Source: Spirochaetota bacterium (GTDB lineage: Bacteria; Spirochaetota; Spirochaetia; Treponematales; UBA12059). Taken from it: a stretch of DNA of 64,000 nucleotides. The notes below the pieces were generated by a model. That model saw nothing but the letters and a program-made list of their open reading frames with translations, searched no databases and had not been told where the DNA came from. The stretch lies in the NCBI GenBank assembly GCA_018262985.1, contig JADFDI010000010.1:9274-73273 (forward strand), in the 5' to 3' direction. This document shows, piece after piece, positions 37,053 to 56,640 of this stretch. Position 1 is the first letter of the stretch, and the number at the start of each line of letters is the position of its first letter. The translations under genes were made by a program, and so were the position numbers.

Positions 37053-37174
37053 CAATTACATCGACCCAATTTGCCACGACCCGATTTCCGGCAACCGCAG
37101 GCGCCCAATCGTGGTAACCCGATGTACAGGCTCCGGAAGCCGCGCCCCGCGCGGAAAGCCGGACGACAGGAGGT

Positions 37175-37630: not shown

Positions 37631-37662
37631 GCGCTTTCGTCCGCTTCCGCCTCGGACGGGAA

Positions 37663-37691
37663 GCCGTCGCGCTCTCGCGCGGCGGCTTTTT
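37663..37691 (+). terminator. possible intrinsic terminator
   Basis: Imperfect GC stem gccgtcgcgc / gcgcggcggc followed by TTTTT. Overlaps the stop codon of the convergent alaX-like gene. Confidence 0.35.
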
Positions 37692-38884: not shown

Positions 38885-39317
38885 GGCCGCATGATAGCGC
38901 GGCGCGGAGGCGGGGTCAAAGGAGGTTCGCGCGAGCGCGGCCTGGGGCTTAATCCAAACACGCTTGAGCGGAGCCTGGCACGCGACAACACACCGCCCTC
39001 GCTCGGGACCGTTCGGGGGCGCGTCATCGCGCGCGACCCGCCGTTCAGCCGTCAGCGAAAAAGCGTCTCCGGGCATGCGCCGGCACGCCGCGGATCCTGG
39101 GGGGGAAACTTGCGTTTTTTCCTTTACCCGGAAAAGCGGCGGGCGTGGCCCACACCCGGCGAAGCACGGTTCCAGAACGACAACGCGGGGGGTGGAGAGG
39201 GGAAACGCACTCCCGAAGCGTAGCGGAGGGAGCGTGTTTTCCGCGACAGGAACTCCGGGGACCTGCTTGGGGAAAAGTTCTCCGCCGCGCGGCGTGGAAG
39301 GTAGGGGGCCAGGCCCG

Positions 39318-40943: not shown

Positions 40944-40948
40944 ACCGT

Positions 40949-41521
40949 CTACTCCAGACCGTCCAGCATCGTATCAACCTTTTCGCGCACGCGCGACTCG
41001 ATATCCCGAGTATCGACCCATTCCAGGTCCGGCATGAGGAGGAGGAGATCCTCATCGGAGAAGACGGATCGACGGGGACGGTCGAGCGGAAACACGGCGG
41101 CGTCCGGCATGGGTTCAGGCGGTTCGAGGCGACCTGCCAGTTCGAGCCAACGCCGTTCGGGCGGCGGCGGCGCCTCTACGGGCTTTGGCGGTCGGGCGGC
41201 GACCGCGAAGGCCACGAAGAGCGCCAGCACGAGCGCCAGGAAGACGGCAAGGCCGAAGACGAGTCCGGGTCGGTCCTTGAGGCCGACCACTCCTTCCTTG
41301 AGAAGCTCGGAGGGCTTCACGCGGGCGCTCTTGAGCGCGTCCGCGGCGACGTGGGCCGCGTCGTCGTCGAAACCAAGGGCGGAGACGGCCGCGTCGTCGT
41401 CATTGGCCGGAGGCGGCGCTTTCGCGTCCTTCGAGAAGCGGGCGCGGGCTTCCTTCACGATCCGTCCCGCCGCCGCGAAAAGCTTCGCCGGTCCCGTTCC
41501 GGAAGACGCCTTGCCGGTCAT
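40949..41521 (-). CDS. hypothetical single-pass membrane protein
   Basis: Central TM helix GLVFGLAVFLALVLALFVAFAVAA. Starts immediately after the smc stop (41522). Confidence 0.45.
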   Translation of the reverse strand: MTGKASSGTGPAKLFAAAGRIVKEARARFSKDAKAPPPANDDDAAVSALGFDDDAAHVAADALKSARVKPSELLKEGVVGLKDRPGLVFGLAVFLALVLALFVAFAVAARPPKPVEAPPPPERRWLELAGRLEPPEPMPDAAVFPLDRPRRSVFSDEDLLLLMPDLEWVDTRDIESRVREKVDTMLDGLE

Positions 41522-44500
41522 CTAGCTCTGTCCCTCTCCGCCGACGGGACCGTCGCCATCACCGGTACCGGCGGTCTCCGAGCTCTGTCCCTCTCCGCCG
41601 GTTCCGGCATCGTCCGGGATCGGGGCGTCAACGGGGTCGCGGAAGGCGCCATCCTCGATGCCGGGGGCGGAGGATGCGTCGTCAAGGCCGAGCGAGAGCT
41701 CGCGGCCGTCCTCCCAGGGCACCTCCTCCTCGTCCTCCATGGCCACGATGGGCTTGGGCGGGACGATCGGGGCGCCGTCGGAGCGCTCGAGGCGCATGGC
41801 GATGGCCTTGGTGACGCCGGATTCCTCCATGGTCACGCCGAGCAGGGCGTCGGCGCCGGTCACCGTCTTCTTGTTGTGCGTGATGACGATGAACTGGCTC
41901 ATGCGGCCGAATTCTCGGAGCAGCGTGACGAAGCGCACCACGTTCTGCTCGTCGAGGGCGGCGTCGATCTCGTCGAGGAAGCAGAAGGGCGAGGGCTTGA
42001 CCATGTAGGTCGCGAAGAGGAGGCCGATGGCGGTCATCGACTTCTCGCCGCCGGAGAGCAGGCTGATCGCCTCGAGGCGCTTCCCCGGAGGCTGGGCGTA
42101 GATCTCGATGCCCGACTCGAGGACGTGGTCCGGGTCGACCATGCGGAGCTCGCCCCGGCCGCCGCCGAAGAGCCTTCGGAAGAGGTTGTGGAAGTTCTTC
42201 TTGATCTTGTTGTAGGTCTCGAGGAAGAGCTCGGCGCTCTCGGCGCGGATCTCGGCCGTGATGCGCTTCAGGTCCTCGCGCGCCTTCTCGAGGTCCGCGA
42301 GCTGGGTCGAGAGGAAGTCGTAGCGCTCCTTGACCTCGGCGTACTCCTCGACGGCCATGAGGTTGACCGAGCCGAGGTCCTTGAGCTTCGAGCGCGCGGC
42401 GGCGAGCTTCTCGCGGAGGTCAGCCATCGGCGCGCGAAGCTCGTACATGCGCTCCTCGAACTCCACGAGCTCGCGCGAGTACTGCTCGCGGAAGTTGTCC
42501 TTGACGTTGCGGATCTCGGTCTCGACCTGCGCGAGGCCCATGTGGAGCCGCTCGAGCTCGGACTGCACCTGGCCGAGCTTCTCCATCTTCTTCCTGAGCT
42601 CGCCCTGGCGGTTCGAGAGCTCGGAGTTGCGGAGCGCGATGTCCTTCTCGAGCTTCTCGAGCGCCGCGGTCAGTTCCCGTCCCTTCTTCTCGATCTCGGC
42701 GATCTCCTCGTCGAGGTCGGAAAGGCGCTCCTCCGCCTCGGCGTGGCGCTTCTCCTCGAGCCAGGCCTCGTTCTCGAGTTCGCGGAGCATGGCCTCCTGC
42801 GCGGCCACCTCGCGGCGGAGCAGGGCGAGGCTCTCCTCGGCGGCCTGGGCCTGGGTCTGGATGCGGATGCGGTTGCCGCGGAGCTCCTCGAGGGTCTTGC
42901 GGTACTCGTCGACCTTGAGCGCGAGCTCGCGGTTCTCCTCGCGGCGGCGCGCCATATCCGCGCGGCGCGAGGCGACGCCCTCGGCGATCTTCCGGATGCG
43001 CTCGTCGGCGCTCCGCTTCTTGGTGATGATGCCTTCGGGCGAGAGGAACTCGTCGAGGAAGGCCGGGCTCGTGGCCTTGTAGCGGGCGAAGCGCTCGCGG
43101 AGCTCGAGGCTTTGCGCGGCGGTCTCGTCGAGGGCCGCGCGGGCGCGGCGCAGCAGTTCCCTCGCGGAGTCCGAACCCACGTCGCGGAGCTTCTCGAGGT
43201 CGTCGAAGAGGGCGGCGCGGCCCTCGAGCCGGGCCACGATGCCGGCCACGAGCGCGTCGATGGCCTCCTCGGCCGCGCGGCGCTCCTGGGCGGAATAGCC
43301 GGTCTCCTTGAGGCGGGCGTCGAGCTCGGCGACGATGTCCTCGGTGATGGCGTCCAGCTCTCGCTGGGCCTCGCCGCGTTCGAGGTCAAGCTTGAGGATC
43401 TCCGCCTCGGCCTTGACGACGGCGGCCTCGTTGTCCTTGATGCGGCCGTCGGCGACGGCGATGTTCTCCTCGAACGAGGCGACGTTGCGGTCGATCTCGG
43501 CGAGGCGCCCCTTGACGGAACGGAGCTCGCCCTCCTTCTCGTCGACGTCCTCGCGCAAGCCCTCGAGCCGTTCGGAAACGCCCTTGGCCCGGAGCCGCGC
43601 CTGGTCCGCCTTGGCCTTGGCCTCGGCGACGCGCTCCACCAGGAGCTTCCGCTCCTTTTCCTTGCCGGCGCGCTCGACGGCGAGGCCGTACACGGTCTTC
43701 TGGTGCTCGACGAGCGTAGCCTCCATCGAGTTGACCACGTCGAGGCTCTCCTCGAGGGTCTGGTTGATGGCGTCTATCTCGCCCTTCACCTTGTCGCGCT
43801 CGCGGGTGCGGTGACCGACTTCCTCGTCGCGGCGCGCCTTCTCGTCGACGAACTGGCGCAGCTTGAGGAGGTGGAGGTCGAGCTCGGACTCGAAGACCTG
43901 GTCGCGCAAGGCCCGGTAGGCGAGCGTCTTGTCGGCCTGGACCTTGAGGGTGTCGTGGCTGCGCTTGACCTCGCCGAGGATGCCCTGCACCTGGCGCAGG
44001 TTCTCCTCGGTGCGCGCGAGCTTCTGCTCGGCTTCCTTCGAGCGCACCTTGTGCTTGGTGATGCCGGCCGCCTCCTCGAAGAGGTAGCGGCGTTCCTCCG
44101 GCTTCGAGGAGAGGATCTGGTCGATGCGGCCCTGCTCCATGACGGAGTAGGCGCTCTTGCCGATGCCCGTGTCCCAGAAGAGCTCGCGGATCTCCTTGAG
44201 CTTGGCCTGAGTCCCGTTGAGCAGGTACTCGCTCTCTCCGGAGCGGTAGAGGCGGCGCTTGATCTGGACCTCGGGCAGGTCGATGGGAAGCCGGCCCGTC
44301 TCGTTGGAGATGGTGAGCGTGACCTCGGCCACCGATAGGGCTTTGCGCGTCTCGGTGCCGTTGAAGATGATGTCTTCCATGCTCTCGGCGCGGAGGCTGC
44401 GGGCCGACTGCTCGCCGACCACCCACTTGATGGCGTCGACGACGTTGGACTTGCCGCAGCCGTTCGGGCCGAGCAGGGCGGAGATGCCGTCGGCGAACTC

Positions 44501-44560
44501 GATGCGGGTCCGGTCGGCGAAGCTTTTGAAGCCGAAAATTTCGAGGCTTTTCAGGAACAC
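41522..44560 (-). CDS. smc: chromosome partition protein Smc
   Basis: GTG start. Walker A GPNGCGKSN, long coiled coils, hinge, signature LSGGEKS, Walker B FCFLDEIDAALD. Acidic C-terminal extension of about 95 aa. Confidence 0.95.
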   Translation of the reverse strand: MFLKSLEIFGFKSFADRTRIEFADGISALLGPNGCGKSNVVDAIKWVVGEQSARSLRAESMEDIIFNGTETRKALSVAEVTLTISNETGRLPIDLPEVQIKRRLYRSGESEYLLNGTQAKLKEIRELFWDTGIGKSAYSVMEQGRIDQILSSKPEERRYLFEEAAGITKHKVRSKEAEQKLARTEENLRQVQGILGEVKRSHDTLKVQADKTLAYRALRDQVFESELDLHLLKLRQFVDEKARRDEEVGHRTRERDKVKGEIDAINQTLEESLDVVNSMEATLVEHQKTVYGLAVERAGKEKERKLLVERVAEAKAKADQARLRAKGVSERLEGLREDVDEKEGELRSVKGRLAEIDRNVASFEENIAVADGRIKDNEAAVVKAEAEILKLDLERGEAQRELDAITEDIVAELDARLKETGYSAQERRAAEEAIDALVAGIVARLEGRAALFDDLEKLRDVGSDSARELLRRARAALDETAAQSLELRERFARYKATSPAFLDEFLSPEGIITKKRSADERIRKIAEGVASRRADMARRREENRELALKVDEYRKTLEELRGNRIRIQTQAQAAEESLALLRREVAAQEAMLRELENEAWLEEKRHAEAEERLSDLDEEIAEIEKKGRELTAALEKLEKDIALRNSELSNRQGELRKKMEKLGQVQSELERLHMGLAQVETEIRNVKDNFREQYSRELVEFEERMYELRAPMADLREKLAAARSKLKDLGSVNLMAVEEYAEVKERYDFLSTQLADLEKAREDLKRITAEIRAESAELFLETYNKIKKNFHNLFRRLFGGGRGELRMVDPDHVLESGIEIYAQPPGKRLEAISLLSGGEKSMTAIGLLFATYMVKPSPFCFLDEIDAALDEQNVVRFVTLLREFGRMSQFIVITHNKKTVTGADALLGVTMEESGVTKAIAMRLERSDGAPIVPPKPIVAMEDEEEVPWEDGRELSLGLDDASSAPGIEDGAFRDPVDAPIPDDAGTGGEGQSSETAGTGDGDGPVGGEGQS

Positions 44561-44733
44561 GGGTCACCCTCGGGGACAGAGCTCTGCGGGAAGGGCGCAT
44601 CCTAGCACGCCGCCCCCCGCCCCCGCAAGACCGAGGCTAAAGCCTTATATCAAAAAGAGAACCGCGGAGGCTCGGAGGCGCCGGAGGCCACGGCCTCGAA
44701 GTCGGCCGTCGCCGGTTTCGAGGCCGGGCGCGC

Positions 44734-46863
44734 TCAGTCGGCCAGGCAGCGGTCGCGGCCCGAGGCCTTGGCGGCGTAGAGCCGCCTGTCGGCGAGCGCC
44801 ACCATCGCCTCGACCGAGAAGCCCTCGCGTTCGAATTCCGCGCTGTCGGCCACGCCGCCGCTGAACGTCATGCGGATCGCGCGGCCTTCGAAGTCGAGGG
44901 CCAGCGCCCGCGCCGCGCCCATTATGCGTTCGAGCATGACGATGACCTCGCCCTTTCGGGCGCTTGGCGAGACGATGAGGAATTCCTCGCCGCCGTAGCG
45001 TCCGAGCAATTCGTAGGGACGTATCGACGAGGCGAGCAAGGCCGCGAAATTCCTGAGCACCAGGTCGCCCGCCTGGTGGCCGAACGTATCGTTGATGGCC
45101 TTGAAGCGGTCGATGTCTAGGATCGAGACGCAGAAATTCCTCTCGCGCCGCACGTACTCGGCGCCGATCGCCTCGAGGCGCTCGAAGAGGTGGCGGCGGT
45201 TGTAGGCTCCCGTGAGCGGATCGCGGACCGCGAGCTCGCGGATGCGCTCCTCCATGAGCTTTTTCTCGGTGATGTCGGAGTGGGTGCCGTACATCTTGAG
45301 CGGCCTGCCCTCCGCGTCGCGCTCCACCACCCGCCCGCGGTCGAGCACCCAGACCCACGAGCCGTCGCGGTGACGCATGCGGCTCTCGTGCTCGTAGTAC
45401 GGCGCGCGCCCCTCGAAGTGCTCGGCGAGGAGCCGATCCGACTCCGCGAGGTCGTCGGGGTGCGCGAGCGCTTCCCAGGTGCCGATGCTCGTCGGCGAAA
45501 GCTCGGCGAGCGAATAGCCCAGCATTTCCGCCCAGCGTTCGTCGAACACCGTCTCGCCGGTCCGCACGTTCCACTCCCAGGTACCGAGCCGCGTGCCTTC
45601 GATGACGTTGGCGAGGCGCTTCCGCTCGACCTCGAGCGCCTCGCGCAGGGTCACGGTCTCGGTGACGTCGACCATCACCGTAAGCAGGAATCGCCGGCCT
45701 TGCGTCTCGATGAGCTCGCCGGAGAAGAGCCCGTGGATGAGCGCGCCGTCCTTGCGGCGCAGCTCGAGCTCGCGGTTCCGGACGCGCCCCCCGGCCTCGA
45801 GCTCCCCGACCGCGCCGCGCCAGCGGCGGCCGTCGACGAAGAGCCGGAGCTCGGGGCTCCGCACGCCGATCACCTCGCGCCGCTCGTAGCCCAAGACGCG
45901 GAGGAAGGCCTCGTTGACGTCGACGAAGCGGTGGTCGGGGACAGAGCTCACCGCCATCGCCGCGGGATTGCCGTGGAAGAGCCGCTCGAATTTCTGGAGG
46001 GCGGCCTGCTCGGCGCTGAGGTCCTTCGACACGCCGAAGATGGCGGGGCGCCCGTCCCACTGGCCGAACCAGACCCGCGTCTCGACGGGCACCCGGCTGC
46101 CGTCGCGGGCGCCGAGCTCGAGGGGACAGCGGTCCAGCTCGCGCCGGAACATGGCGTCGAGGATGCAGGCCGCCTCGTCGCGCTTGTCGGCCGGGTGCAG
46201 CTCGATGATGGGCAAGCCCACGAAGTCCCCGCGCGCGTAGCCCAGGCGGCGGCACGCGGCCTCGTTCGCGTAGACCACGCGGCCCTCCGTGTCGCCCACC
46301 ACGATGATGTCGTCCACCGTCTCGAAGAAGGTCCGGAAATTCGCCTCGGAGACGGCGATCCGGTCGCCGAGCAACTTCTTGGCGTACGCCGTCGAGACGA
46401 TGCCGGAGATGGTCCGCAACGTCTCGATCTCCGTCGAGGTCCACGCCCGATGGCCGCAGCATTCGTCGAAGCCGAGGAAGCCCCGCACGCCGCCTTCGAC
46501 CAGGAGGGGCGCGAAGACGATGGCGCTGATGCCCTGCGCTTCGAGCACGCCGCGGACGTCGTCAGGCAAGGTGCCGACATCCTCGACCGGGTAGACCACC
46601 TTCCGGTCCAGGATGGCCTTCCAGCTGGGAATGGAAGCGTAGGGGATGTCCTTCAGGTTGTCGATCTCGGGCTCGACCCCCTCGGCGCACCACTCGTGGG
46701 TGTTGGAGGTGGTTTCTCCGTCGTCGGAATCGAGGAACAGGTAGCAGCGGGAAACGCCGAGGCGCGAGCCCATGAGCGCGAGGCTGCGGTTCACCTGAAC
46801 GTCGAAGCCGTCGCCCGTGACGAAGATGAGGGCTATCTCGGAGATGGTCCCGGATTCCAGCAT
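44734..46863 (-). CDS. GAF-PAS-PAS-PAS-GGDEF diguanylate cyclase
   Basis: N-terminal GAF-like domain, three PAS-like repeats, and a C-terminal GGDEF domain with RYGGEEF and DRFKAINDTFGH. Confidence 0.9.
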   Translation of the reverse strand: MLESGTISEIALIFVTGDGFDVQVNRSLALMGSRLGVSRCYLFLDSDDGETTSNTHEWCAEGVEPEIDNLKDIPYASIPSWKAILDRKVVYPVEDVGTLPDDVRGVLEAQGISAIVFAPLLVEGGVRGFLGFDECCGHRAWTSTEIETLRTISGIVSTAYAKKLLGDRIAVSEANFRTFFETVDDIIVVGDTEGRVVYANEAACRRLGYARGDFVGLPIIELHPADKRDEAACILDAMFRRELDRCPLELGARDGSRVPVETRVWFGQWDGRPAIFGVSKDLSAEQAALQKFERLFHGNPAAMAVSSVPDHRFVDVNEAFLRVLGYERREVIGVRSPELRLFVDGRRWRGAVGELEAGGRVRNRELELRRKDGALIHGLFSGELIETQGRRFLLTVMVDVTETVTLREALEVERKRLANVIEGTRLGTWEWNVRTGETVFDERWAEMLGYSLAELSPTSIGTWEALAHPDDLAESDRLLAEHFEGRAPYYEHESRMRHRDGSWVWVLDRGRVVERDAEGRPLKMYGTHSDITEKKLMEERIRELAVRDPLTGAYNRRHLFERLEAIGAEYVRRERNFCVSILDIDRFKAINDTFGHQAGDLVLRNFAALLASSIRPYELLGRYGGEEFLIVSPSARKGEVIVMLERIMGAARALALDFEGRAIRMTFSGGVADSAEFEREGFSVEAMVALADRRLYAAKASGRDRCLAD

Positions 46864-47020
46864 GCGGCGCGTCCCTCCACGGGCGGCGCGTCGATCCGTG
46901 GCCGCCCGGTATCATAAGGATAGGAACCACCGCCGGCGTGTCAAACTTCCCCTCGCTGGATGCCGTCGAGCCGTTCGGCGACGAGGGCGCCGCGGGCGAT
47001 TTCGCCCGCGGCCTGTCTCG

Positions 47021-48253
47021 CTACTTCAGCACGCCCAGTTCCCTGCCGGCCTCGGCGAAGGCCTGCACGGCGGCGTCGATCTGCTCCGTCGTATGCGCGG
47101 CGCTGATCTGCACGCGGATGCGTGCCTTGCCGCGCGGCACCACGGGGAAGCTGAAGCCGATGACGTAGACGCCCTTCTCGAGGAGGCGGTCCGCCAGCGC
47201 GTGCGCGAGCTTCTCGTCGTAGAGCATGACCGGCACGATGGGGTGGACGCCCGGGCGGATGTCGAAGCCCGCGGCCGTCATCCTCTCGCGGAAGCGCTTC
47301 GTGTTCGCCTCGAGCCTGTCGCGGAGCTCGGTGCTCGCGGTGAGGAGCTCGAGCGCGGCGAGCGTGCCGCCTACGATGGAGGGCGCCAGGGTGTTCGAGA
47401 ATAGGTAGGGCCGCGCCTTCTGCCTGAGGTACTCGACGATCTCCTTCCGCGCCGCCACGCAGCCACCCGAGGCGCCGCCCAGCGCCTTCCCGAAGGTCGT
47501 CGTGATGATGTCGATCCGGCCCGCCACGCCGCGATATTCCCAGGTGCCGCGGCCCTTCGTCCCGGTGAAGCCCGTAGCGTGGCTGTCGTCCACCATGACG
47601 AGGGCGTCGTACTTCTCCGCCAGGTCGCAGATCGCCTTGAGGTCGGCGATGTCGCCGTCCATCGAGAAGACGCCGTCGGTGGCGATCATGCGGAACTTAG
47701 CGCCCTTCGCCTCCTTGAGGCAGCGCTCGAGACCCTTGGCGGTCTTGCCCGTGTCGGGGTCGGTCTCCTCCACGTCGCGGAGGTCGCCGTGCTTCCAGAT
47801 CCAGCGCTTCGCCTTGCACAGGCGCACCCCGTCGATGATGGACGCATGGTTCAGGCTGTCGGTGATGATGGCCGAATCCTCGTCGAGGAGCGGCTCGAAG
47901 ACGCCGCCGTTCGCGTCGAAGCAGGACGAGAAGAGGATGCAGTCTTCGGTCCCGAGGAAATCGGCGACCGCCTTCTCGAGCTTCTTGTGCAGGTCCTGCG
48001 TGCCGCAGATGAAGCGAACGCTCGAAAGCCCGTAGCCGCGCCCGTCGAGCGCCGCGCGGGCGCCCGCGACCACCGCCGGATGGTTGGAAAGGCCGAGGTA
48101 GTTGTTGGCGCAGAAGTTCACCACTTCCTTGCCGTCGGAGGTGCGGATCAGCGCGCCCTGCGGCGTCGCGATCACGCGCTCGTTCTTGTAGGTCCCGTCG
48201 GCCCGGATGGCCGCGAGCTTCTTCGTCAAATCGTCTTTCAGCGCGCCGTACAC
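47021..48253 (-). CDS. kbl: glycine C-acetyltransferase (2-amino-3-ketobutyrate CoA ligase)
   Basis: GTG start. Colinear with E. coli Kbl throughout ([64 protein letters not shown]). Confidence 0.9.
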
Positions 48254-48537
48254 CTCTGTCCCTCCCGTGGAAACTGTCGCGACGATGATACACCCTTTTA
48301 TCGAAACCGGCCATGCGTAGAAAGATGCGCGAGCGCGCAGATACTCCGAGAGGATGACCGTAAGGGAGGATGCGAATCGGGGCGGGGGAGACAGGCGCCG
48401 AAGTCCGCAGCTCGCCTCGCCCGCCTCGAGACGGCACGCGAACGCCTCCGGGCGGCCGCGGCGACGAAGCCGCGGAACTGCTTCGCCGATATTCCGGCGC
48501 AGGCTCGGGCGACAGCGATCGTGCCAGTCATCACATA

Positions 48538-48732
48538 GGGACAGAGCTCACAGGGCAACAAGCGAGTCCCCCCCATAGGGACAGAGCTCAGAGATGGCAA
48601 CAACGGAATCAAAGGGACAGAGCTTCCGGCAACAACGAGAGCAGGGACAGAGCTTCCGGCAACAACGAGAGCAGGGACAGAGCTCTCATGAAGGAACGAC
48701 TCGGTTCCAGGGACGTTTTGGGGACAGAGCTT
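48538..48732 (+). repeat. array of six GGGACAGAGCT(C/T) copies immediately upstream of the RAYT-like gene
   Basis: Copies at 48538, 48578, 48614(v), 48644(v), 48674, 48721(v). The 30-nt unit ggcaacaacgagagcagggacagagcttcc occurs twice. catagggacagagctca occurs twice. Confidence 0.95.
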
Positions 48733-48793
48733 CAGCGATGTAAAAATATTCTGCGAGCGCAAGCGCCCTGTCGTCTTTTGACGGTACGATGGC

Positions 48794-49342
48794 ATGCACA
48801 AACCACGCTTGCTGAGGGATGGCGCCTTGTACCACGTCACCGCGCGCGCAAACCGCCAGGAGCTCGTGATGAAGGGGGCCGCCATGAAAGCGCTCTTCAT
48901 CCGTACGCTCCGCCGCGCGAGGAAACGGTACGATTTCCGTCTCGAGAACTTCTGCGTCATGGGAAACCATTTCCACCTCATGATCCGCCCCGGCCCGAAC
49001 GAAAGCCTCTCGCGGATCATGCAGTGGATCATGAGCGTCTACGCCATGGCCTGGAACCGTCGCCATCGGCTGACCGGTCACCTTTGGGGCGATCGGTTTT
49101 TCTCGCGAATCATCGAAGGCCTCAAAACCTTCCTCGAAGTGTTCAAGTATCTCGACGACAATCCGGTGAGCGCCGGGCAGGTATCGAATCCGCGCGAGTG
49201 GCGCTTCGGAGGGCTCTGGCGCCAACGTACCGGGTTCCCGGATCCCGGCGAGCCGCCATCCTCGCACGTGGCGCTGCTCTTCCCGGAACACGTAAAACTC
49301 GCGTTGCCCGCGCCCGTCACGACTTTCGATTCAACGTCGTGA
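48794..49342 (+). CDS. IS200/IS605-type Y1 (HUH) transposase homolog, RAYT-like
   Basis: LYHVTARANRQE, CVMGNHFHLMI (HUH), WNRRHRLTGHLWGDRFFS, YLDDNPVSAG are colinear with the Y1_Tnp / REP-associated tyrosine transposase family. Single gene with no tnpB. GC lower than surroundings. Confidence 0.75.
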   Translation: MHKPRLLRDGALYHVTARANRQELVMKGAAMKALFIRTLRRARKRYDFRLENFCVMGNHFHLMIRPGPNESLSRIMQWIMSVYAMAWNRRHRLTGHLWGDRFFSRIIEGLKTFLEVFKYLDDNPVSAGQVSNPREWRFGGLWRQRTGFPDPGEPPSSHVALLFPEHVKLALPAPVTTFDSTS

Positions 49343-49687
49343 ATCGCCCCCTCTCCATCAACATCCGCGTCCCGGCCCATCCTCGCCCCCGCACGCCGCT
49401 CGCCCCCTACGCGGCAACGCAACCGCCCGGTCGAACTCCCGCCGACGGAGCGCCCTAACCGCGATGCGGGGTGTCGTCATCCATGACGTACCCGTCCGAC
49501 GAGCGGACGGGCCAAATGTCTGGCGCGCATGCGTCCTTTCGGTTCGCTTTCGGCAAGGAAATGGTTACAGTGCCCGCGTTCCGCGCGGGCGACCTCATCC
49601 TTGCGCGCCTGCTGCGCGGCTTGGTAAACCCCGCCGATGTTTTCGGGGTGAATGCGACGCGGAGGGTGGCGCGTGGAAATACGCCTG

Positions 49688-49717
49688 CGCGCGCTCCAAG
49701 CGCGCGGGTGTTTTTTT
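49688..49717 (+). terminator. intrinsic terminator
   Basis: 7-bp GC stem cgcgcgc/gcgcgcg with loop tccaa, then ggtg plus T7 (49711-49717). Confidence 0.6.
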
Positions 49718-49796
49718 CCTGCGACAGGACCCCCGCTCGCGGACTCTGATAAAACCTTCGACGCTTTCCCCAGAAATCCTCGGTGCGGACGGCGCG

Positions 49797-50060
49797 CTAT
49801 TTCGACGCGCCCGAGTACGCCTCGATGGCCTCCATCTCCGTCTCCAGCCGTGAGAGGTCGCGGAGCAGGCGGTCGATGCGGAGGCTCACGACGTCGCGGC
49901 CGCCCTGGCCGGCGGCCTCGGCGAGGCGCTCGAAGGGGCCGGCCAGGGACTCCTCGAAGCTGGCTCGGCTTTCCTCGGCGGCCTTCGAGCCGCAGTAGGG
50001 GCAGAAGGCGAAGCTGCGGAGTATCATCCGGCCGCAGGAGGCGCAGAACGCGACGCGCAT
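49797..50060 (-). CDS. small zinc-ribbon protein
   Basis: N-terminal CASCG...17 aa...CPYCG zinc-ribbon pattern followed by a helical tail. 20 nt downstream of phoH2 on the same strand. Confidence 0.5.
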   Translation of the reverse strand: MRVAFCASCGRMILRSFAFCPYCGSKAAEESRASFEESLAGPFERLAEAAGQGGRDVVSLRIDRLLRDLSRLETEMEAIEAYSGASK

Positions 50061-50080
50061 CGCCCTTCCCTCCCTTGGTC

Positions 50081-51388
50081 CTAGAGCAGGGTCGAGGCGA
50101 GCTCGGCGAGCTCGCTCCGCTCGCTCCGGGCGAGCGTGACGTGGCCGTAGCAGGCCTGGCCCTTGAACGCCTCCACGAGGAACGAGAGCCCGTTCGAGTT
50201 GGCGTCCAGGTACATGTTGTCGATCTGGTAAGGATCGCCGGTCAGGATGACCTTGGTGCCGTCGCCGGCGCGGCTGACTATGGTCTTGACCTCGTGGGGA
50301 GTGAGGTTCTGCGCTTCGTCGATGACGATGTAGAGGTTCGGGAGCGAGCGCCCGCGGATGTAGGTCAGGGCTTCGATCTCGATGACGCGGTCCTTAAGCA
50401 GCTGTTCGGCGCTCTTCATGTTCGGGCGCTTGTGGACGCCCAGGATATACTCGAGGTTGTCGAAGATGGGCTGCATCCAGGCGCTCATCTTGGCGGACTT
50501 CTCGCCGGGCAGGTAACCGATGTCCTTGCCGACGGGGATGACGGGCCGCGACACGAGCATGCGCGAGTACTTCTTCTCGTCGAGGATCTTCTTGAGGCCC
50601 GCGGCGATGGCCATGAGGGTCTTGCCCGTGCCCGCCTTGCCGACCAGGGTGACCAGCTTGATCCGGTCGTCGAGGAGGAGGTCGAAGGCCATGCGCTGGC
50701 GCTCGTTGAGCGCCGAGATGCCGGATACTTCCTCGTACTTGGCCTCCACGAGCTCAAGGCGGCCTTCGACGGCGTCGTAGCGGGCCAGGCGCTGGAGGTC
50801 GCCGGAGCGCGAGCGGAGCGTGACGAACTCGTTGGCCAGGAGCTTGTCGGGCCAGGGCAGCCCGACGCCGGAATCGAGGGCGGCGAGGTCCTCGCCCGTG
50901 GCGACCGCGTCGCGGAAGCCCGAGTGGAGCCGGTCGATGTCGACCTTCTGCTTGTCGTAGTCGACGGCCCTGATGCCGAGCGCCGTGGCCTTGACGCGGG
51001 CGTTGATGTCCTTGGAGACGAAGAACACCTTGCGCCCCTCCTGCTGGAGGGCGTAGGCGCAGAGGATGATGCGGTTGTCGTACTTGCCCGCGTCGAACTC
51101 CCGGGGGCGCTCGGCGGGCAGATCGAGGGCGACGCGGAGGGTCGAGCCGTTCTCCAGCTTCACGCCCGCGTGCAGGTTCCCCTTCCCCGACACCGAGTCG
51201 AGGAAGCGGATGGCGTCGCGGGCGGCCTTCCCTTTGTAGTCGGGCGAGATCTTGAGCCCGTCGAGCTCCTCGAGCACCCAGAGGGGGATGACCACCTCGG
51301 TGTCCTTGAAGGACATGACCGCCTCGGGGTTGTGCACGAGCACGTTGGTGTCCACCACGAAGGTCTTGATCGACTTGTCCTCGGACAT
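50081..51388 (-). CDS. PIN-domain plus PhoH-like ATPase (PhoH2 / YlaK type)
   Basis: N-terminal PIN (FVVDTNVLVHNP). PhoH domain with Walker A GKAGTGKT, IVIDEAQNLTPHE, GDPYQID. Confidence 0.9.
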   Translation of the reverse strand: MSEDKSIKTFVVDTNVLVHNPEAVMSFKDTEVVIPLWVLEELDGLKISPDYKGKAARDAIRFLDSVSGKGNLHAGVKLENGSTLRVALDLPAERPREFDAGKYDNRIILCAYALQQEGRKVFFVSKDINARVKATALGIRAVDYDKQKVDIDRLHSGFRDAVATGEDLAALDSGVGLPWPDKLLANEFVTLRSRSGDLQRLARYDAVEGRLELVEAKYEEVSGISALNERQRMAFDLLLDDRIKLVTLVGKAGTGKTLMAIAAGLKKILDEKKYSRMLVSRPVIPVGKDIGYLPGEKSAKMSAWMQPIFDNLEYILGVHKRPNMKSAEQLLKDRVIEIEALTYIRGRSLPNLYIVIDEAQNLTPHEVKTIVSRAGDGTKVILTGDPYQIDNMYLDANSNGLSFLVEAFKGQACYGHVTLARSERSELAELASTLL

Positions 51389-51482
51389 GCTGCCTCCCGC
51401 GCTCCGGCCTACCCCTCAAGTATAGGAAGGGCGGGGAGCGTTTCCACTCCCCGCCCTTCGATGCGCCGCGTTTCCGCTCCGC

Positions 51483-51866
51483 TCAGGAAGCCTTGGGCTT
51501 CCGGCCGCGCTTCTTCGGGCCGGTGGCCGCCACGGGCTCGACCTCGATGGCCGGGGGCTCGTCGTCGGTGAGCTCGAGCACCTCGTGGAACTCGAGGCGC
51601 TTCTGGCGCCCGCGGGTCTGGTCGCGGCCGCGCACCGACACGTACTCCTCGGTGACGCCGGCGACCACGCCCCATTCCTGGCCCTTGGAGGTTTCGAAGC
51701 GGACGAAGGCGCCCACGTGAAGCTTCTTCATGAGATCCTTGGCTCCGGCCTTGCGGAGCTCGAGGCGGCGCGCGTCGATGCGGGCGACCAGCGCGTCGAG
51801 CTCCCCGAAGCCGGCGCCGTCCACGAAATCGGCCGCGTCGTCGAAGCCGGAGTTCTTTCCTGCCAT
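51483..51866 (-). CDS. hypothetical protein with basic C-terminal tail
   Basis: Strong SD-containing leader CCACGGGAGGGACAC before the ATG. High GC3. C-terminal KKRGRKPKAS. No family recognised. Confidence 0.45.
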   Translation of the reverse strand: MAGKNSGFDDAADFVDGAGFGELDALVARIDARRLELRKAGAKDLMKKLHVGAFVRFETSKGQEWGVVAGVTEEYVSVRGRDQTRGRQKRLEFHEVLELTDDEPPAIEVEPVAATGPKKRGRKPKAS

Positions 51867-52075
51867 GTGTCCCTCCCGTGGGTGTGTTGGTTTGGTTCAT
51901 AGAGTATACGACACCGCGCCGCCCTCCGGGGAAGCCTTTCCGCCCGAAAAACGCCGCCGCGCCGGGCGGTGCGGCCGGCGGGTCGAAGCGGGCTGTCGGG
52001 TGCCGGGGACGGAGCCGCCGCCCGAGCCGCGAAGGCCCCCGAGTTGCCCTTTCCCCCGGCGCTTCCTTCCCCGCC

Positions 52076-52636
52076 TCAGGCCTTGCGGGGGCGGAGGAAG
52101 CCGAAGAAGGCGCCCATGAGGCCGCCGATGATGTGGGCGAACTCGCTGACCTGGTTCGAGGCGAAGCTGGCGAGCACCTCGCGGCCGAGGAAAAGGACCA
52201 TGACGAGGAGGAAGGTGACCGGTATCTCGCCCTTGCCGAAATTGGTGAAGCTGGCGAGGAGGATCATCATGAAGACGATGCCGGACGCGCCCATGAGCGA
52301 GGTCGGGAAGATCAGGGCGTTGAGGATGCCGGTGGCCAGGGCCGTGACGCCGCCCATGAGCAACATGAGGCCCGAGCCGTAGACTGCCTCGAGGATGGGG
52401 CCGAGCAGCAGGATCATCATGAAGTTCGAGAGGAAGTGCTCGAGACCCGCGTGGCCCGCGACGTGGGACACGAGGCGCAGCCAGTCGAGCGGATCGCCGG
52501 CGCGGAAGGTGCCGCGCGCGGGGGCGCTGAAGAGGTTCTCGGCGAGGCCCGGGAAGGCGACGGAATCGAGCGCCAGGACGAGGCCCGACACGAGCGTGAA
52601 CGTGAGCACCGCCGGCGCGTTGTACTTGATCTTCAT
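52076..52636 (-). CDS. rhomboid-family intramembrane serine protease
   Basis: Start MKIKYNAP at 52636. 6 TM helices. GASGIVF (catalytic Ser) and FAHIIGGLMG (catalytic His) motifs. Confidence 0.75.
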   Translation of the reverse strand: MKIKYNAPAVLTFTLVSGLVLALDSVAFPGLAENLFSAPARGTFRAGDPLDWLRLVSHVAGHAGLEHFLSNFMMILLLGPILEAVYGSGLMLLMGGVTALATGILNALIFPTSLMGASGIVFMMILLASFTNFGKGEIPVTFLLVMVLFLGREVLASFASNQVSEFAHIIGGLMGAFFGFLRPRKA

Positions 52637-53412
52637 ACGTCCAGGCTCACGGAGACGGGGCAGTGGTCGCTGCCCTGCACCTGGTCGAGGATGGCGGCGC
52701 CCGTGACCTTGGTCGCGAGATCCCGGTCGACGCAGTGGTAGTCGATCCTCCACCCTATGTTCTTCTCGCGGGCGCGCGTGCGGTAGCTCCACCAGGAGTA
52801 CTTCTCCGGCGAGGGGTCGAACATGCGGAAGGTGTCGACGTAGCCGGAGCCCAAGAAGGAATCCATCCAGGCGCGCTCCTCGGGCAGGTAGCCGGGGTTG
52901 CCCTCGTTCTCCTTCGGGCGGGCGAGGTCGATCGGCTTGTGCGCGATGTTGAAGTCGCCGCAGACGAGCACGCGGCGCCCTTTGGCCACGAAGCCGTCGA
53001 GCAGGTCCTTCATGGCCGCGCAGTAGCCGAGCTTGTACTCAAGGCGCGCGCCCGCGTCCTGCGAGTTCGGGAAGTAGGCGGAGACGAGGACGAAGAGCCC
53101 GAAGTCGGCCACGAGGGTGCGGCCTTCGTCGTCGAATTCCGGGACGCCCATGAACGAGACCGAGCGGGGTTCCTCGCGCGACCAAATGGCGACGCCCGAA
53201 TAGCCGCGCTTCTTCGCGCTGGCCCAGTAGGCGCGGTAGGGGCGGCCTTCGGAATCCGCGGGCGCGAGCAGCTCCTTCGGGAGCTGGTCCGGGTCGGCCT
53301 TGGTCTCCTGCAGGCAGAGCACGTCGGGGCGCTCCGCGTCGAGCCAGTCGAGCAGTCCTTTCGAATGCGCGGAGCGCACGCCGTTGACGTTCCAAGAGAT
53401 CAGCCTGGTCAT
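52633..53412 (-). CDS. xth: exodeoxyribonuclease III
   Basis: SWNVNG, LCLQETK, GDFNIAH, WSYR, IDY, GSDHCPVS are full-length ExoIII/APE motifs. Confidence 0.9.
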   Translation of the reverse strand: MTRLISWNVNGVRSAHSKGLLDWLDAERPDVLCLQETKADPDQLPKELLAPADSEGRPYRAYWASAKKRGYSGVAIWSREEPRSVSFMGVPEFDDEGRTLVADFGLFVLVSAYFPNSQDAGARLEYKLGYCAAMKDLLDGFVAKGRRVLVCGDFNIAHKPIDLARPKENEGNPGYLPEERAWMDSFLGSGYVDTFRMFDPSPEKYSWWSYRTRAREKNIGWRIDYHCVDRDLATKVTGAAILDQVQGSDHCPVSVSLDV

Positions 53413-53471
53413 GCCTTCATCCTTCCGGGCTCCCCGCGGATCCGGGCGGCGCCGGGGGCCCGCGCGGGGGA

Positions 53472-54467
53472 TCAGGGTCCTTCGGTCACCTCGAGCTGGA
53501 CCGAGAGGACGATGTCGTAGGTTCGCCCCTTCACGGCGGTGAAGCGGCGGGTGACGGTGTAGTCGCCGAGGCGGCAGACCAGCGTGTGCTCGCCGGCTTC
53601 GATCTCGAGGCGCGGGTTCGCGGCGTGATCCCAGGGAAGGCCGTCGAGCTCGATGAGGGCGAGGTCGGGCGCCTGGACGCGGAGGACGGGGGCCGTTCCA
53701 GCGAGCTCGAGCGCGAGTTCGACGACGCGGCCGGCCTCCACCGTGACCGTGCGGTGCTCGTCGCGGAAACCGGGAACCGAGACCTGCACCGAGCGGACGC
53801 CCTTCTTCAGGATGATGAGTCCTTCCCTGAGCTCGACCTTCTTGCCGTCGACCCAAACCTCCGGCGCGGCGGCCGGGGTCGCGCCTTCGGCGTTGCGGAG
53901 CGTGAGCGCGATGCCTCCCTCGTCGGTGTAGAGGGGTCGGACGCGGAGGCGGAACACGGCCTTCTCGAGCTCCGCGGAGACGCCTTTGCCGGCCGCCTCC
54001 AGGTGGAACAGCAGGGGATAGCGGTTGGAGGCCACGAGCTCGGGTATGACGAGGGCGTAGGGACCGCCGCGGAGGGTGTGGCGCGCGATGGCGGGCACCT
54101 GGACGACGAGGGAAACGCGCGCCGGAAGGGGTTGCGTCGCCACGTGGATCGCGCGGTAGTCGAAGAGGTCCTTCGAGGGTTCCGGCGCGAGGGAGCGCCA
54201 GACCGACCAGAGTATCGACGACGAGGCGGCCATGGCCGGCGGCGGAACGCGCAGCTCGAACTCGAGGCCCTGGATGAAGGGGTTCGGGGAGTCGAAGGTG
54301 ACGGCGACCGCGTCGCCGAGCACGCACTCCACCCAGGCGCCTTCCTCGGCGAGGCCGGAAAGTTCGACGACGGCGGCCACGGGAACGCGGAGCCGCTCCT
54401 GCGCCGCGACGGGCAGGCACAGGGCGAGAAGGGTAGCCGCGAGCAAGGTCGTGCGTAGGTTCATCAT
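53472..54467 (-). CDS. secreted hypothetical protein with PEGA-like beta domain
   Basis: Signal peptide MMNLRTTLLAATLLALCLPVAAQ. C-terminal VWVDGKKV...GVRSVQVSVPGFRDE resembles PEGA-type domains. Confidence 0.5.
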   Translation of the reverse strand: MMNLRTTLLAATLLALCLPVAAQERLRVPVAAVVELSGLAEEGAWVECVLGDAVAVTFDSPNPFIQGLEFELRVPPPAMAASSSILWSVWRSLAPEPSKDLFDYRAIHVATQPLPARVSLVVQVPAIARHTLRGGPYALVIPELVASNRYPLLFHLEAAGKGVSAELEKAVFRLRVRPLYTDEGGIALTLRNAEGATPAAAPEVWVDGKKVELREGLIILKKGVRSVQVSVPGFRDEHRTVTVEAGRVVELALELAGTAPVLRVQAPDLALIELDGLPWDHAANPRLEIEAGEHTLVCRLGDYTVTRRFTAVKGRTYDIVLSVQLEVTEGP

Positions 54468-55414
54468 GGATTCCGGGGTAGGACCGGCAGGGGGTCGCGC
54501 GCCGCGCCCCCCAAGCGGACCTCGAAATGCAGGTGCGGACCCGTCGATTGGCCCGTGCTGCCGACTTCTCCGATGATACTACCGGATGCGACGACGTCGC
54601 GCAATGCCGCCAGCCTTTTCGAGAGGTGTCCGTAGAGGGTTGACCAGCGGCCCTCGTGCTCTACGACGAGGTACTCGCCGTAGACCGGGTCGAAGCCCGC
54701 CGCGGTCACGGTGCCCGCGCGCGCGGCGTAGACCGGGGTGCCGGCCGGCGCGGCCAGGTCGATGCCGGCGTGCATCGATGGCTTTCCGGTGAAGGGGCTG
54801 GGGCGAGAGCCGAACGAGCTCGTAAGGCGTCCCTTGGGCAGCGGGAAGCGGAACTGGATGTTGAGGAAGAAGGCCCGCTCGCTCGGATTGAAGCGGGCGC
54901 CCGGCAGGAAGCGGAAGCGGGCGGCGCCCGAGGGCAGGGCCAGCTCGACGGGATAGCCCGCGTCGGGCTCCTCGACGCGGCCAGCGGCCACGAGGTGCTC
55001 GAGGTCGTTCGCGGGGCTCGCGGCTACGAAGATTCCCGGCACCGATGGTATGACGACGAGGCGCCCGGCGGGGATGGCCTCCTGGCCGGCGAGGCGGTTG
55101 GCCGTGACGATGGCTTCGTAGGGCAGGTCGAAGCGCGCGGCCAGCGAGAAGACGTCGGTCGGCGCGTCGGAGCGCCAGAAGGCGAGCACCAGGTCTGGCC
55201 AGGGGGCGGTGCCCGCTTCCGCTCGGCGCCCCTGGGCGGCGGAGTCGGTGAATTGGCGGAACACGAGGTCGACCGGGTCGAGGCGGCGGATGAGGGGATA
55301 GACGAAGGCGGCGCCCTGGGCCGCCGAACGCGCGCCGAGGGAGAGCGAGAGCCAGGCGACGAGGCAACCGAAGAGGGCGCGAACCGGTATCCGCGCGAAC
55401 CGCGAGCCGCTCAG
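54464..55414 (-). CDS. M23 family metallopeptidase with LysM-like segment; start codon uncertain
   Basis: HAGIDLAAPAGTPVYAA and GSTGQSTGPHLHFEV are M23 motifs. A signal-peptide-like RIPVRALFGCLVAWLSLSLGARSAAQG lies just inside the 5' end. No ATG/GTG/TTG nearby, so a CTG at 55414 overlapping the upstream stop is proposed. Confidence 0.75.
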   Translation of the reverse strand: MSGSRFARIPVRALFGCLVAWLSLSLGARSAAQGAAFVYPLIRRLDPVDLVFRQFTDSAAQGRRAEAGTAPWPDLVLAFWRSDAPTDVFSLAARFDLPYEAIVTANRLAGQEAIPAGRLVVIPSVPGIFVAASPANDLEHLVAAGRVEEPDAGYPVELALPSGAARFRFLPGARFNPSERAFFLNIQFRFPLPKGRLTSSFGSRPSPFTGKPSMHAGIDLAAPAGTPVYAARAGTVTAAGFDPVYGEYLVVEHEGRWSTLYGHLSKRLAALRDVVASGSIIGEVGSTGQSTGPHLHFEVRLGGAARDPLPVLPRNP

Positions 55415-55824
55415 GAAGCGCTCCGGGCGAAGAGCGCGAGCCCCGCCGCCAGGACGAGCGCGCCGACGAGCGGTACGCCGAGCCAGGGCAGCCGCGCGGC
55501 GAGGGCGAGCGCGGGGAGGGCGGCGAGCGCGCAGCCCGCGAGCGCGAGGCTCCGGGCCGCGCCGAGGCGATCGGCGCGGGGCGCGCCCGCGCGCCGAGCC
55601 GCCGCGCGCGATCGGGCGGAAGCGAGGACGAGCGCGGCACCGGCGAGAACCATGATCGAGAGCGCGTAGGCTCGCGGGTTCGAGGTGGCGGCGAGCCAGA
55701 GCGGCCACGCGACCAGGGCGCTGAGGCAGCCCGCCAGGACCACGGCGATCGCGAGGCCGGCGCCCGTCCTCAACGCCGCGAGATAGCCGCGCGCCACCTT
55801 CCCAAGGGCTTCCGACGCCCTCAT
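55411..55824 (-). CDS. hypothetical membrane protein (4 TM)
   Basis: Ala/Leu-rich hydrophobic helices. 4-nt overlaps with both neighbouring genes. Confidence 0.45.
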   Translation of the reverse strand: MRASEALGKVARGYLAALRTGAGLAIAVVLAGCLSALVAWPLWLAATSNPRAYALSIMVLAGAALVLASARSRAAARRAGAPRADRLGAARSLALAGCALAALPALALAARLPWLGVPLVGALVLAAGLALFARSAS

Positions 55825-56594
55825 TTCGCGCTCCCCGCCATCGGACGCGCGCGCGCGTAGGCCAGGAGCAGGGGCAATTCGGCACGGGCGGCCGTGCGCC
55901 TGAGCTTCCGGAGCAGGGAAGCCCGGTCCGCGGAGGGCTCGGAAAGGGCTCGGGCCGATTTGAGGGTCGAAACCGCGTAGATGCGATCCTCTATCGCGGC
56001 GCAGAGCGCATCCAGGTCGGAGGCGTCGCGGGCGTCGAGCTCGACGCGCGGTGGGCCGGAGATCCAGGCGGCGAAGGCTTCCGGCTCGAGGAGCGTGGCG
56101 TCCTCCAGGGCTTCCTCCATCATCGAGACCGCGGGGCTGGTCCGGAAGAAGGCGCGGTCGAGGGCGAGCCGGAGGCTCGCGAGGCGGGTGGAGAAGGCCG
56201 GCGAAGCCAGGGCCCGGCGTTCGAGCCAGAACCAGGATGCGACGGCGCCGAGCCCGGACACGAGGAGCTCGTCGACGAGCGGCACGGGATCGCGTATGAC
56301 GATGCCCAGGAACAGGTAGAGGACGATGAAGACGAGCGAGGCGACGGCCAGCCGGAAGGCGAAGCCGCGATCGAGGGCGTCGGCCTTGGCGCCGGAGTCC
56401 AAGGCCGCCTGCAGGCGGGAACGCAGGGCGGCCGGATCGACCGCGCCGTCCTCGGCCGAACCGAGCAGGCCCTCGAAAAGGATCGTGGAGGCTTCCGCCC
56501 GGAAGACCCGCGAGCCGGGGTAGAAGGGGTGGAGGAGGAGGGAGGAGCCGGGTCGGGACCGCAGCTCGAAAACCCGGAACGGCTCGGCGCTCAT
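55821..56594 (-). CDS. hypothetical membrane protein
   Basis: Two central TM helices (FRLAVASLVFIVLYLFLGIVI; LLVSGLGAVASWFWL). High GC3. Confidence 0.5.
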   Translation of the reverse strand: MSAEPFRVFELRSRPGSSLLLHPFYPGSRVFRAEASTILFEGLLGSAEDGAVDPAALRSRLQAALDSGAKADALDRGFAFRLAVASLVFIVLYLFLGIVIRDPVPLVDELLVSGLGAVASWFWLERRALASPAFSTRLASLRLALDRAFFRTSPAVSMMEEALEDATLLEPEAFAAWISGPPRVELDARDASDLDALCAAIEDRIYAVSTLKSARALSEPSADRASLLRKLRRTAARAELPLLLAYARARPMAGSAK

Positions 56595-56640
56595 GGGGTC
56601 AAGGTACGGAACGGCCCGGAGGCTGTCAAGCGGAGGCGGG

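Follow-up and report, generated by a model that had tools for sequence, protein, structure and literature searches.

An intact RAYT-like Y1 HUH nuclease gene in Spirochaetota, preceded by a short, non-palindromic and widely dispersed motif that is most likely its cognate DNA site

The stretch of DNA analyzed here (referred to as the window) comprises 64,000 nucleotides of a Spirochaetota genome (GCA_018262985.1, contig JADFDI010000010.1, positions 9,274 to 73,273) and contains a gene related to the repetitive extragenic palindrome (REP)-associated tyrosine transposases (RAYTs), directly preceded by six copies of a short motif that recurs throughout the window. We conclude that this open reading frame (ORF) encodes an intact RAYT/TnpAREP-type class-2 Y1 HUH protein. 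Because the motif, R-GGGACAGAGCT-C-R, lies next to the gene in 70 of 80 homologous loci, because motif variants co-vary between the gene and its surroundings, and because a homologous motif, GGGTCAGGTCT, is found in the sister clade, we suggest that the motif is most likely the cognate DNA site of the protein. The first-pass annotation of this DNA had proposed the gene as the driver of the motif family. Of that proposal, a specific link between gene and motif stands, whereas mobilization of the motif by the protein is at best conjectural, the copies inside genes having arisen by substitution and not by insertion.

The gene is initiated by ATG, and its 182-amino-acid product contains the motifs YHVTARAN, NHFHLMI, and KYLDDNPV. 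PF01797 (Y1_Tnp) was the sole Pfam domain detected (E = 2.7e-15, 57 bits versus a cutoff of 23). The NCBIfam equivalog REP_Tyr_transpos (NF047646) was passed marginally (81.9 bits versus a cutoff of 80), and the IS200 model (NF033573) scored below its cutoff (29.6 versus 55 bits). The top 30 Protein Data Bank matches of a Foldseek search with an AlphaFold2 (AF2) model were all IS200, IS608, or ISDra2 TnpA structures or the Escherichia coli TnpAREP structure 4ER8, with a core root mean square deviation of ~2.1 Å over 81 residues. The earlier identification as a RAYT-like Y1 transposase is thus well supported. Further, the string Y119-L-D-D-N123-P124 is the Y---NP signature that is found throughout the class-2 TnpAY1 proteins (PMC6006769).

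The active site of E. coli TnpAREP consists of Y115, H59-M60-H61, N119, H123, and E161 (PMC3479197), and the window protein has Y119, H59-F60-H61, and N123 as counterparts. In the phmmer alignment to 4ER8, the only solved RAYT structure, KYLDDNPV pairs with DYIYINPV, such that the catalytic Y115 aligns with Y119 (nucleotides 49148-49150) and the metal ligand N119 aligns with N123; H59 and H61 are encoded at 48968-48970 and 48974-48976 (HUH span 48968-48976). The first-pass annotation had instead looked for the nucleophile in GHLWGDRFFS, had read a Phe in its place, and had therefore considered that the protein might be domesticated or inactive. Some relatives do have R-Y at the matching position (GGRYYS and QGRYHS), which gives that reading its appeal. 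However, GHLWGDRFFS pairs with the E. coli segment NIWQPRFWEH (the W94 region), and the RFFS position, which falls on PRFWEH of TnpAREP, is not catalytic. The class-2.1 relatives introduced below likewise have Phe at the "RF" position (GHLFQGRF), and in an alignment of 22 homologs the whole W-G-x-R-F-F-S string (residues 98 to 104) is invariant, as are H59, H61, Y119, N123, and P124. As Y119 aligns with Y115 and is invariant and as RFFS aligns elsewhere, we reject the missing-Tyr reading as an alignment error, and a dead protein is very improbable. The predicted catalytic Tyr is Y119 in KYLDDNPV, with RFFS as a separate invariant motif; judged from these alignments, the protein holds all residues expected of an active enzyme and is probably active as a nuclease.

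In the window, GGGACAGAGCTC has 50 matches at one mismatch or fewer versus 0.85 expected, and none of 100 shuffles reached that number. Six of the copies form the direct array upstream of the gene, starting at 48538, 48578, 48614, 48644, 48674, and 48721; the spacings of 40, 36, 30, 30, and 47 bp match those given earlier, and two exact 30-bp tandem units lie inside the array. The same six-copy arrangement is present in a close relative, L001 (GCA_020047475.1). The array had been described as the only one with mixed spacings, which does not hold, since those at 39718-39954, 36889-37052, and 17212-17389 are also mixed.

To place this arrangement in a wider context, one genome per GTDB species was scanned, yielding 239 relatives, of which the best 80 loci (L004 to L083) formed the comparative set; several of the statistics given here and below pool related genomes. 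Nearly all of these loci are from Spirochaetota (Treponematales or Spirochaetales), two records being titled only "bacterium," and their GC contents range from 43% to 69%; L057 belongs to a cultivable relative, Treponema sp. TIM-1. Their upstream contexts fall into 58 distinct groups, including several syntenic sets. Across these contexts, a plus-strand GGGACAG starts 45 to 130 bp upstream of the gene in 70 of the 80 loci (P ~3e-69, given a per-strand intergenic background probability of 0.071 per such interval), with one to seven upstream copies per locus. The pattern extends to loci in which the motif is otherwise rare: at locus L078, the only motif copy in 11.8 kb sits at -51, and L028 and L043 are similar. 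No upstream copy is closer than -50, and the proximal copies of the homologous loci cluster at about -51, -62, -73, and -87 from the ATG, in phase with a period of 10.5 to 11 bp (Rayleigh nR2 of ~13, uncorrected for the relatedness of the loci or for the number of periods tried). In L063, L069, and a few further loci, which together form a small clade, the upstream copies point the other way. The 3' side differs: across 76 loci, the first 150 bp beyond the stop codon showed no conserved word, no enriched k-mer, and no motif in inverted orientation, and the 3' flank of the window gene contains no motif copy.

Between the motif and the ATG, conserved boxes occur at matching positions in most of the 80 loci (CAAGC or CAATC near -35 and GCGTAT or a TATAAT-like box near -12). 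No Shine-Dalgarno sequence is visible between motif and ATG, and a sigma-70 consensus scan of 48250-49850 gave no promoter match. Based on the boxes conserved between loci, we consider 48755-48793 a putative promoter, possibly of a leaderless or short-leader mRNA. In one orthologous group (L030 and L053), ~50 nucleotides before the ATG, the proximal motif and an inverted copy downstream of it (GACAGAGCTCG-N12-CGAGCTCTGTC) form an 11-bp hairpin with the conserved CAATC box in its loop; most other loci, including the window, are without this hairpin. Same-strand motif arrays are also found several hundred base pairs downstream of the gene in L009 (10690-10870), L024 (2270-2476, with alternating units of ~26 and ~43 bp), and L031 (10770-11000), none of them with inverted copies.

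The motif is by no means restricted to the vicinity of the gene. The exact 10-mer occurs 666 times in 1.16 Mb of loci, and 302 of these copies are intergenic (1.70 per kb), including 102 upstream of RAYT genes. The remaining 364 lie within genes (0.37 per kb), with 183 on the sense and 181 on the antisense strand and with all three frames represented; the chance expectation from base composition is ~0.0035 per kb. Copies were assigned as genic or intergenic by a self-trained codon model whose calls agreed with those in the database for L001 and L003; gene calling by G1-G2 periodicity picked shadow ORFs in DNA of 70% GC and was replaced by this model. In tandem intergenic regions outside the RAYT context, 41 motifs were co-oriented and 39 were anti-oriented with the genes, so the motif is not a general promoter element.

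The genic copies arose by substitution rather than insertion, because alignments to orthologous positions were gap free in 243 of 257 cases (176 identical and 67 substituted, with gaps in the other 14). They are also strongly retained. Where local identity is 70 to 75%, 71% of motif copies are identical versus 4.8% of control 10-mers in the same alignments, and at 80 to 85% identity the corresponding values are 74% and 21%. In the flank logo, conservation outside the motif is limited to one purine on each side, indicating that the motif unit is at most 14 nucleotides long. Clustered copies are mostly direct (300, versus 59 inverted), with spacings of 12 to 60 bp, and each array has its own spacer or period (13, 21, 26, 30, and 33 bp in the window). 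The window and L001 differ in the array at 39718-39954 by one whole 51-bp unit; hence, arrays change by gain or loss of units, which points to local slippage or unequal exchange. Among adjacent direct copies spaced 12 to 52 bp apart, 116 of 212 spacings are multiples of three versus an expected one third, a count in which orthologous arrays may be double-counted, and some arrays lie in or overlap the ends of ORFs.

Motif variants tie the dispersed copies to the gene. Most genomes use GGGACAGAGC, with 561 copies outside the RAYT-upstream intervals. Where a TGC variant precedes the RAYT gene, TGC variants are enriched among the dispersed copies in the flanking 10 to 20 kb (odds ratio versus AGC of 7.7, P = 2e-8), and the same holds for the GGC variant (odds ratio of 80, P = 6e-15), although these counts are pooled within genomes and the P values overstate independence. 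In the metagenome-assembled genome (MAG) JAPLSN, some paralogs have AGCT upstream and others have TGCT. The variant groups form partial clades in the RAYT protein tree. Protein residues and motif variants are also associated (e.g., Leu to Phe at position 62 in 7 of 7 TGC-type versus 6 of 53 AGC-type proteins), but because phylogeny confounds such associations, we draw no evidence from them.

The closest database proteins with an organism name (55 to 99% identity) are from Spirochaetota MAGs (Spirochaetia, Rectinemataceae, and Treponema). A representative library of 1.84 billion proteins contains 23,292 representatives at E ≤ 1e-3 and only 60 at E ≤ 1e-30, so the clade is compact. The next relatives share ~30% identity and belong to the subclass 2.1/TIRYT type; they are longer and have FQGRF, W-x-W-SS, and a helix-turn-helix (HTH)-like tail at the C terminus. 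We place the window protein in a Spirochaetota-restricted class-2 clade that is sister to the TIRYT/class 2.1 group. The RAYT-like TIRYT genes described by Di Nocera et al. (2013, PMC3733652) lie between inverted repeats that have GGGGWSAS in common and are about equally far from the coding region, and TIRYTs correspond to TnpAY1 subclass 2.1 (Quentin et al. 2018, PMC6006769).

Eighty loci of class-2.1-like relatives were gathered from metagenomes, and 58 of them had enough upstream sequence for comparison. GGGTCA[GA] is present upstream on the plus strand in 50 of the 58, with a mode at -45, and the consensus R-GGGTCAGGTCTTG continues into a -35 box of the TTGCAA type. In the spirochaete loci, the consensus is R-GGGACAGAGCTC-R, which shares GGG-W-CAG-R-K-CT with R-GGGTCAGGTCTTG, in the same place and the same orientation. 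Likewise, GGGTCAGGTCT is a homologous motif of the TIRYT/class 2.1 clade at this upstream position (-45). R-GGGACAG fits GGGGWSAS when R is G, as is the case for 17 of the 50 window copies and most copies in other genomes. Of 44 class-2.1-like loci, 19 carry an inverted copy no more than 300 bp past the stop codon, and in 15 of these it was within 20 bp, which is the TIRtron layout. As the Y1 gene is the only component common to these distant hosts, the conserved site beside it is most readily understood as the sequence that the protein itself recognizes. In the spirochaete clade, the 5' copy was retained and the site multiplied, while the inverted copy on the 3' side and the HTH tail were lost.

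The gene has a GC content of 61.4% in a window of 70.1% GC, in agreement with the earlier observation that it is lower in GC than its surroundings. As a sign of foreignness, however, this feature fails. The RAYT gene is below its own locus in GC in 80 of 81 loci (mean of -9.3 points), and yet its GC content scales with that of the host (slope of 0.79, r = 0.83, 81 loci). Because gene GC tracks host GC, the low value characterizes the family as a whole and does not point to recent transfer.

Taken together, we lean, with somewhat better than even confidence, toward a reading in which the protein binds the motif and may also nick it, the copies next to the gene serve as an operator, and the dispersed copies persist through this interaction. 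The gene-proximal copies would be a retained "left end" that doubles as an operator beside the promoter and so allows autoregulation; transposase ends overlapping their own promoters are established in insertion sequence (IS) biology and offer an analogy. The dispersed copies might be maintained either by a benefit that the cell draws from the interaction of protein and motif or by a bias toward the motif that this interaction imposes on repair or conversion, rather than through REP-like transposition of hairpin elements. Several points weigh against this reading. The Y1 enzymes characterized so far recognize, to our knowledge, hairpins in single-stranded DNA, whereas 44-nucleotide windows centered on the motif show no hairpin propensity (minimum free energy of -13.0 versus -14.2 kcal/mol for controls). 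All comparative loci were selected for carrying the gene. In the MAG LacPavin, which has at least five paralogs, dispersed copies are few, and motif density does not track the RAYT copy number. The AF2 model is of medium confidence (pLDDT of 69.6). No replication-strand bias was detected (67 events on the G-rich versus 78 on the C-rich strand, P = 0.41). Further, the substitution origin, strand neutrality, and orthologous conservation of genic copies would also fit the site of another host system.

The last of these points leads to the strongest alternative, namely, that the dispersed motif belongs to a different system, such as a DNA uptake sequence (DUS)-like element or a nucleoid or regulatory site, and that the RAYT-like genes are only regulated by it, with the Y1 protein not recognizing the motif. 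The DUS of Neisseria and the uptake signal sequences (USS) of Pasteurellaceae resemble the motif in length, in a density of ~1 per kb, in strand symmetry, in genic occurrence by substitution, in conservation, and in having dialects. In these respects, a core of 10 to 12 nucleotides at ~0.4 to 1.7 copies per kb, equally on both strands and in all frames, arising by substitution, conserved between orthologs, showing lineage dialects, and free of replication-strand bias is what such a system would predict, and the ~10.5- to 11-bp phasing of the proximal copies from the ATG is as expected for a duplex-binding regulator. A search of the literature for the motif strings or for spirochaete uptake sequences returned only unrelated eukaryotic primer matches, which is not proof of absence. 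However, a motif of another system would not readily account for the homologous motif found at the matching upstream position in class-2.1 relatives from unrelated metagenomes, where the Y1 gene is the sole common factor (PMC3733652). Nor would it account for a motif that follows no orientation rule elsewhere and yet is almost always co-oriented upstream of the RAYT-like gene, or for two variants coexisting in JAPLSN, each beside a different paralog. Direct tandem arrays are not a known feature of DUS and USS, and strict cis association with a Y1 HUH gene also sets the spirochaete motif apart from them. We thus regard another system as unlikely, though a serious contender.

The two models suggested by better-known relatives fit far less well. 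In the classical REP/REPIN-RAYT arrangement, hairpin-forming extragenic palindromes with a 5' GT[AG]G flank the gene on both sides and are mobilized as single-stranded DNA. The marginal NF047646 match is in line with this arrangement, as is the strong genome-wide overrepresentation of the flanking oligomer (a criterion in PMC5581495), which ranks first among the 10-mers in most of the 80 loci. However, no GTAG was found preceding the motif; with neither hairpin nor GTAG, it is no REP. As the first-pass annotation had cautioned and as folding against controls and the flank scans confirmed, the motif is nonpalindromic and has no 3' copies at the gene. Clustered copies are mainly direct, over half of all copies are inside genes, the flank logo reveals no longer structured element, and the E. 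coli guide-recognition residues Q95, E100, H101, and R104 are replaced by G99, S104, R105, and E108. The REP/REPIN model is therefore hardly tenable. Just as improbable is an active insertion sequence of the IS200/IS605 type whose left end would be the motif array. The Y1 transposase fold, the presence of at least four to five gene copies in several genomes, and a 3' half of the gene that is mosaic between two near-identical strains might be taken to favor it. In the neighbor-joining tree, however, the paralogs of one genome fall in different clades, each with orthologs at syntenic sites in other genomes, and hence are old, divergent, and stable paralogs rather than IS copies. Moreover, the protein has the Y---NP signature of class 2 and not Y---Q (PMC6006769), its score against the IS200 model is far below the cutoff, and conserved right ends, subterminal hairpins, and identical copies with defined ends at nonsyntenic sites of one genome were not seen. 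The gene also stands alone, as stated earlier: tblastn detected no second RAYT copy in the window, and its neighbors are a Kbl-type aminotransferase gene on one side and genes for a Zn-ribbon protein and a PIN-PhoH ATPase on the other, with no adjoining tnpB.

Compared with characterized systems, the window protein shares with E. coli TnpAREP (4ER8; PMC3479197, PMC3333891) the fold, the HUH residues H59 and H61, the Tyr on helix alpha-D, and the Asn metal ligand, and with RAYTs in general a low copy number, vertical inheritance, and flanking by the most overrepresented short repeat of the genome. E. coli REPs, however, are imperfect palindromes of 20 to 40 nucleotides with a 5' GTAG, are strictly extragenic, and occur on both sides of the gene (PMC3479197, PMC3333891), whereas the spirochaete motif is 12 to 14 nucleotides long, nonpalindromic, restricted to the 5' side, arranged in direct arrays, and also genic. 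With the IS200/IS605 TnpA proteins (IS608 and ISDra2), which gave the best Foldseek matches, it has the HUH/Y1 fold in common, while the hallmarks of that family, namely, the Y---Q signature, a subterminal hairpin at each end, multicopy elements of identical sequence, and a frequently present tnpB, are absent here. The closest sequence relatives outside the clade are the TIRYT/TIRtron proteins (TnpAY1 subclass 2.1, or Bertels Group 1 RAYTs), with which it shares the Y---NP signature, an NH[YF]H HUH motif, the absence of canonical REPs, and a coding-strand motif of the GGGGWSAS type that lies beside the promoter, a short and constant distance before the gene. Unlike TIRYTs, which have a C-terminal DnaA_C or HTH_23/28 HTH-like domain and a median length of ~238 amino acids, the 182-amino-acid window protein is without the tail, and it has WGxRFFS and W-x-F/Y-GGLW in place of FQGRF and W-x-W-SS. 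The spirochaete genes also differ in being without a 3' inverted copy and in having a motif multiplied genome-wide, genes included, a spread that is unreported for TIRYTs.

We thus regard the system as a RAYT/TIRYT variant with a short, linear, one-sided cognate motif in genes and spacers across a spirochaete clade. The cellular role of RAYTs and the way in which short repeats spread are still open questions, and this clade contrasts with the REP/REPIN paradigm of Escherichia and Pseudomonas in that the partner is short, linear, one-sided, genic by substitution, strongly conserved, and tied to the GGGGWSAS repeats of TIRYTs. It raises the questions of whether a Y1 HUH enzyme can read a nonhairpin site, whether it regulates its own gene through that site, and whether the presence of the gene maintains the dispersed copies. 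A bolder and rather doubtful extension is that the clade maintains thousands of nonpalindromic sites of 10 to 14 nucleotides, in genes and spacers alike, for a domesticated HUH nuclease family, either by selection or by nuclease-initiated short-patch conversion toward the motif, with the intergenic direct arrays as hot spots of the same activity. If true, this would represent a new genome-wide "motif drive" or chromosome-marking system, linking RAYT/TIRYT biology with the evolution of uptake-like sequences. In any case, GGGACAGAGC and its dialects provide a strong genomic signature for a large group of uncultured Treponematales and Spirochaetales.

Table 1. Gene, upstream region, and motif copies in the 64,000-nucleotide window
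Feature	Position	Strand	Remarks
RAYT-like class-2 Y1 HUH nuclease gene, 182 aa	48794..49342	+	Profile matches, alignment to 4ER8, AF2/Foldseek
Conserved boxes between motif and ATG (putative promoter)	48755..48793	+	CAAGC 48760-48764, TACGAT 48785-48790
Six direct copies of R-GGGACAGAGCT(C/T)	48538..48732	+ (coding strand)	Immediately 5' of the gene
Gene-proximal motif copy	48721..48732	+	Starts 73 nt before the ATG
Largest window array, 14 copies, mostly 13-bp period	12336..12540	-	Between MFS transporter gene and divergent FlgO/LpoB-like gene
Five-copy array including 33-bp units	17212..17389	-	Upstream of LysO-type exporter gene
Four-copy array, 21-bp period	24156..24230	+	Just upstream of or overlapping start of OmpR-type response-regulator gene
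Five-copy array including 26-bp units	36889..37052	-	5' end of ECF sigma-factor gene
Five-copy array, mixed spacing	39718..39954	+	L001 with one extra 51-bp unit
Two in-frame copies (…GQS…), 57 bp apart	41523..41591	-	3' end of 1012-aa SMC_N ATPase gene
Single copies, both strands	486..62263	.	Starts 486, 1039, 4448, 7637, 20896, 44573, 45938, 60318, 62252

The other motif copies of the window are listed in Table 1. The larger arrays lie at the 5' ends of the MFS transporter, LysO-type exporter, OmpR-type response-regulator, and ECF sigma-factor genes, positions that may be coincidental, given that no orientation preference was found in the wider data. The TAG stop codon of the SMC_N ATPase gene consists of the two closing bases of the last copy and the G after them. 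Several of the single copies are within ORFs, including the one at 45938, which is antisense in a PAS-GGDEF gene, and the one at 20896, which is in the ORF at 20443-21372.

The window and L001 are otherwise 98.5% identical, with no difference between them in the upstream array or in the 5' half of the RAYT gene. Over 49069-49470, however, a segment that extends from the codons for GHLWG to ~130 bp beyond the stop codon, identity falls to 68 to 90%. The segment is a patch of recombination or gene conversion by which the C-terminal half of the protein has been replaced; near position 49476, L001 also carries an additional insert of ~60 bp. Further downstream, a 70-bp element at 49530-49599 is the sole non-RAYT sequence in common with the nonsyntenic homologous locus L004 (80% identity), and a relative of this element occurs twice in L001. 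The element opens with an AAGGA resembling a ribosome-binding site and then has ATG/GTG, so that a small ORF (…RAGDLI…) could begin there. No Pfam match was found in the ORF at 49471-49749, and a strong intrinsic terminator (12-bp stem and T7) follows the element at 49681-49711 on the plus strand.

Scans of the window with Rfam at gathering thresholds and for tRNA genes gave no matches. A long tandem repeat, with an 18-bp unit, a 90-bp superunit, and ~24 copies, extends over 58330-58773 within a minus-strand ORF (56641-60147) of 1168 amino acids without a Pfam match, in which the repeat would encode a highly repetitive, acidic segment rich in Leu, Ala, and Glu.

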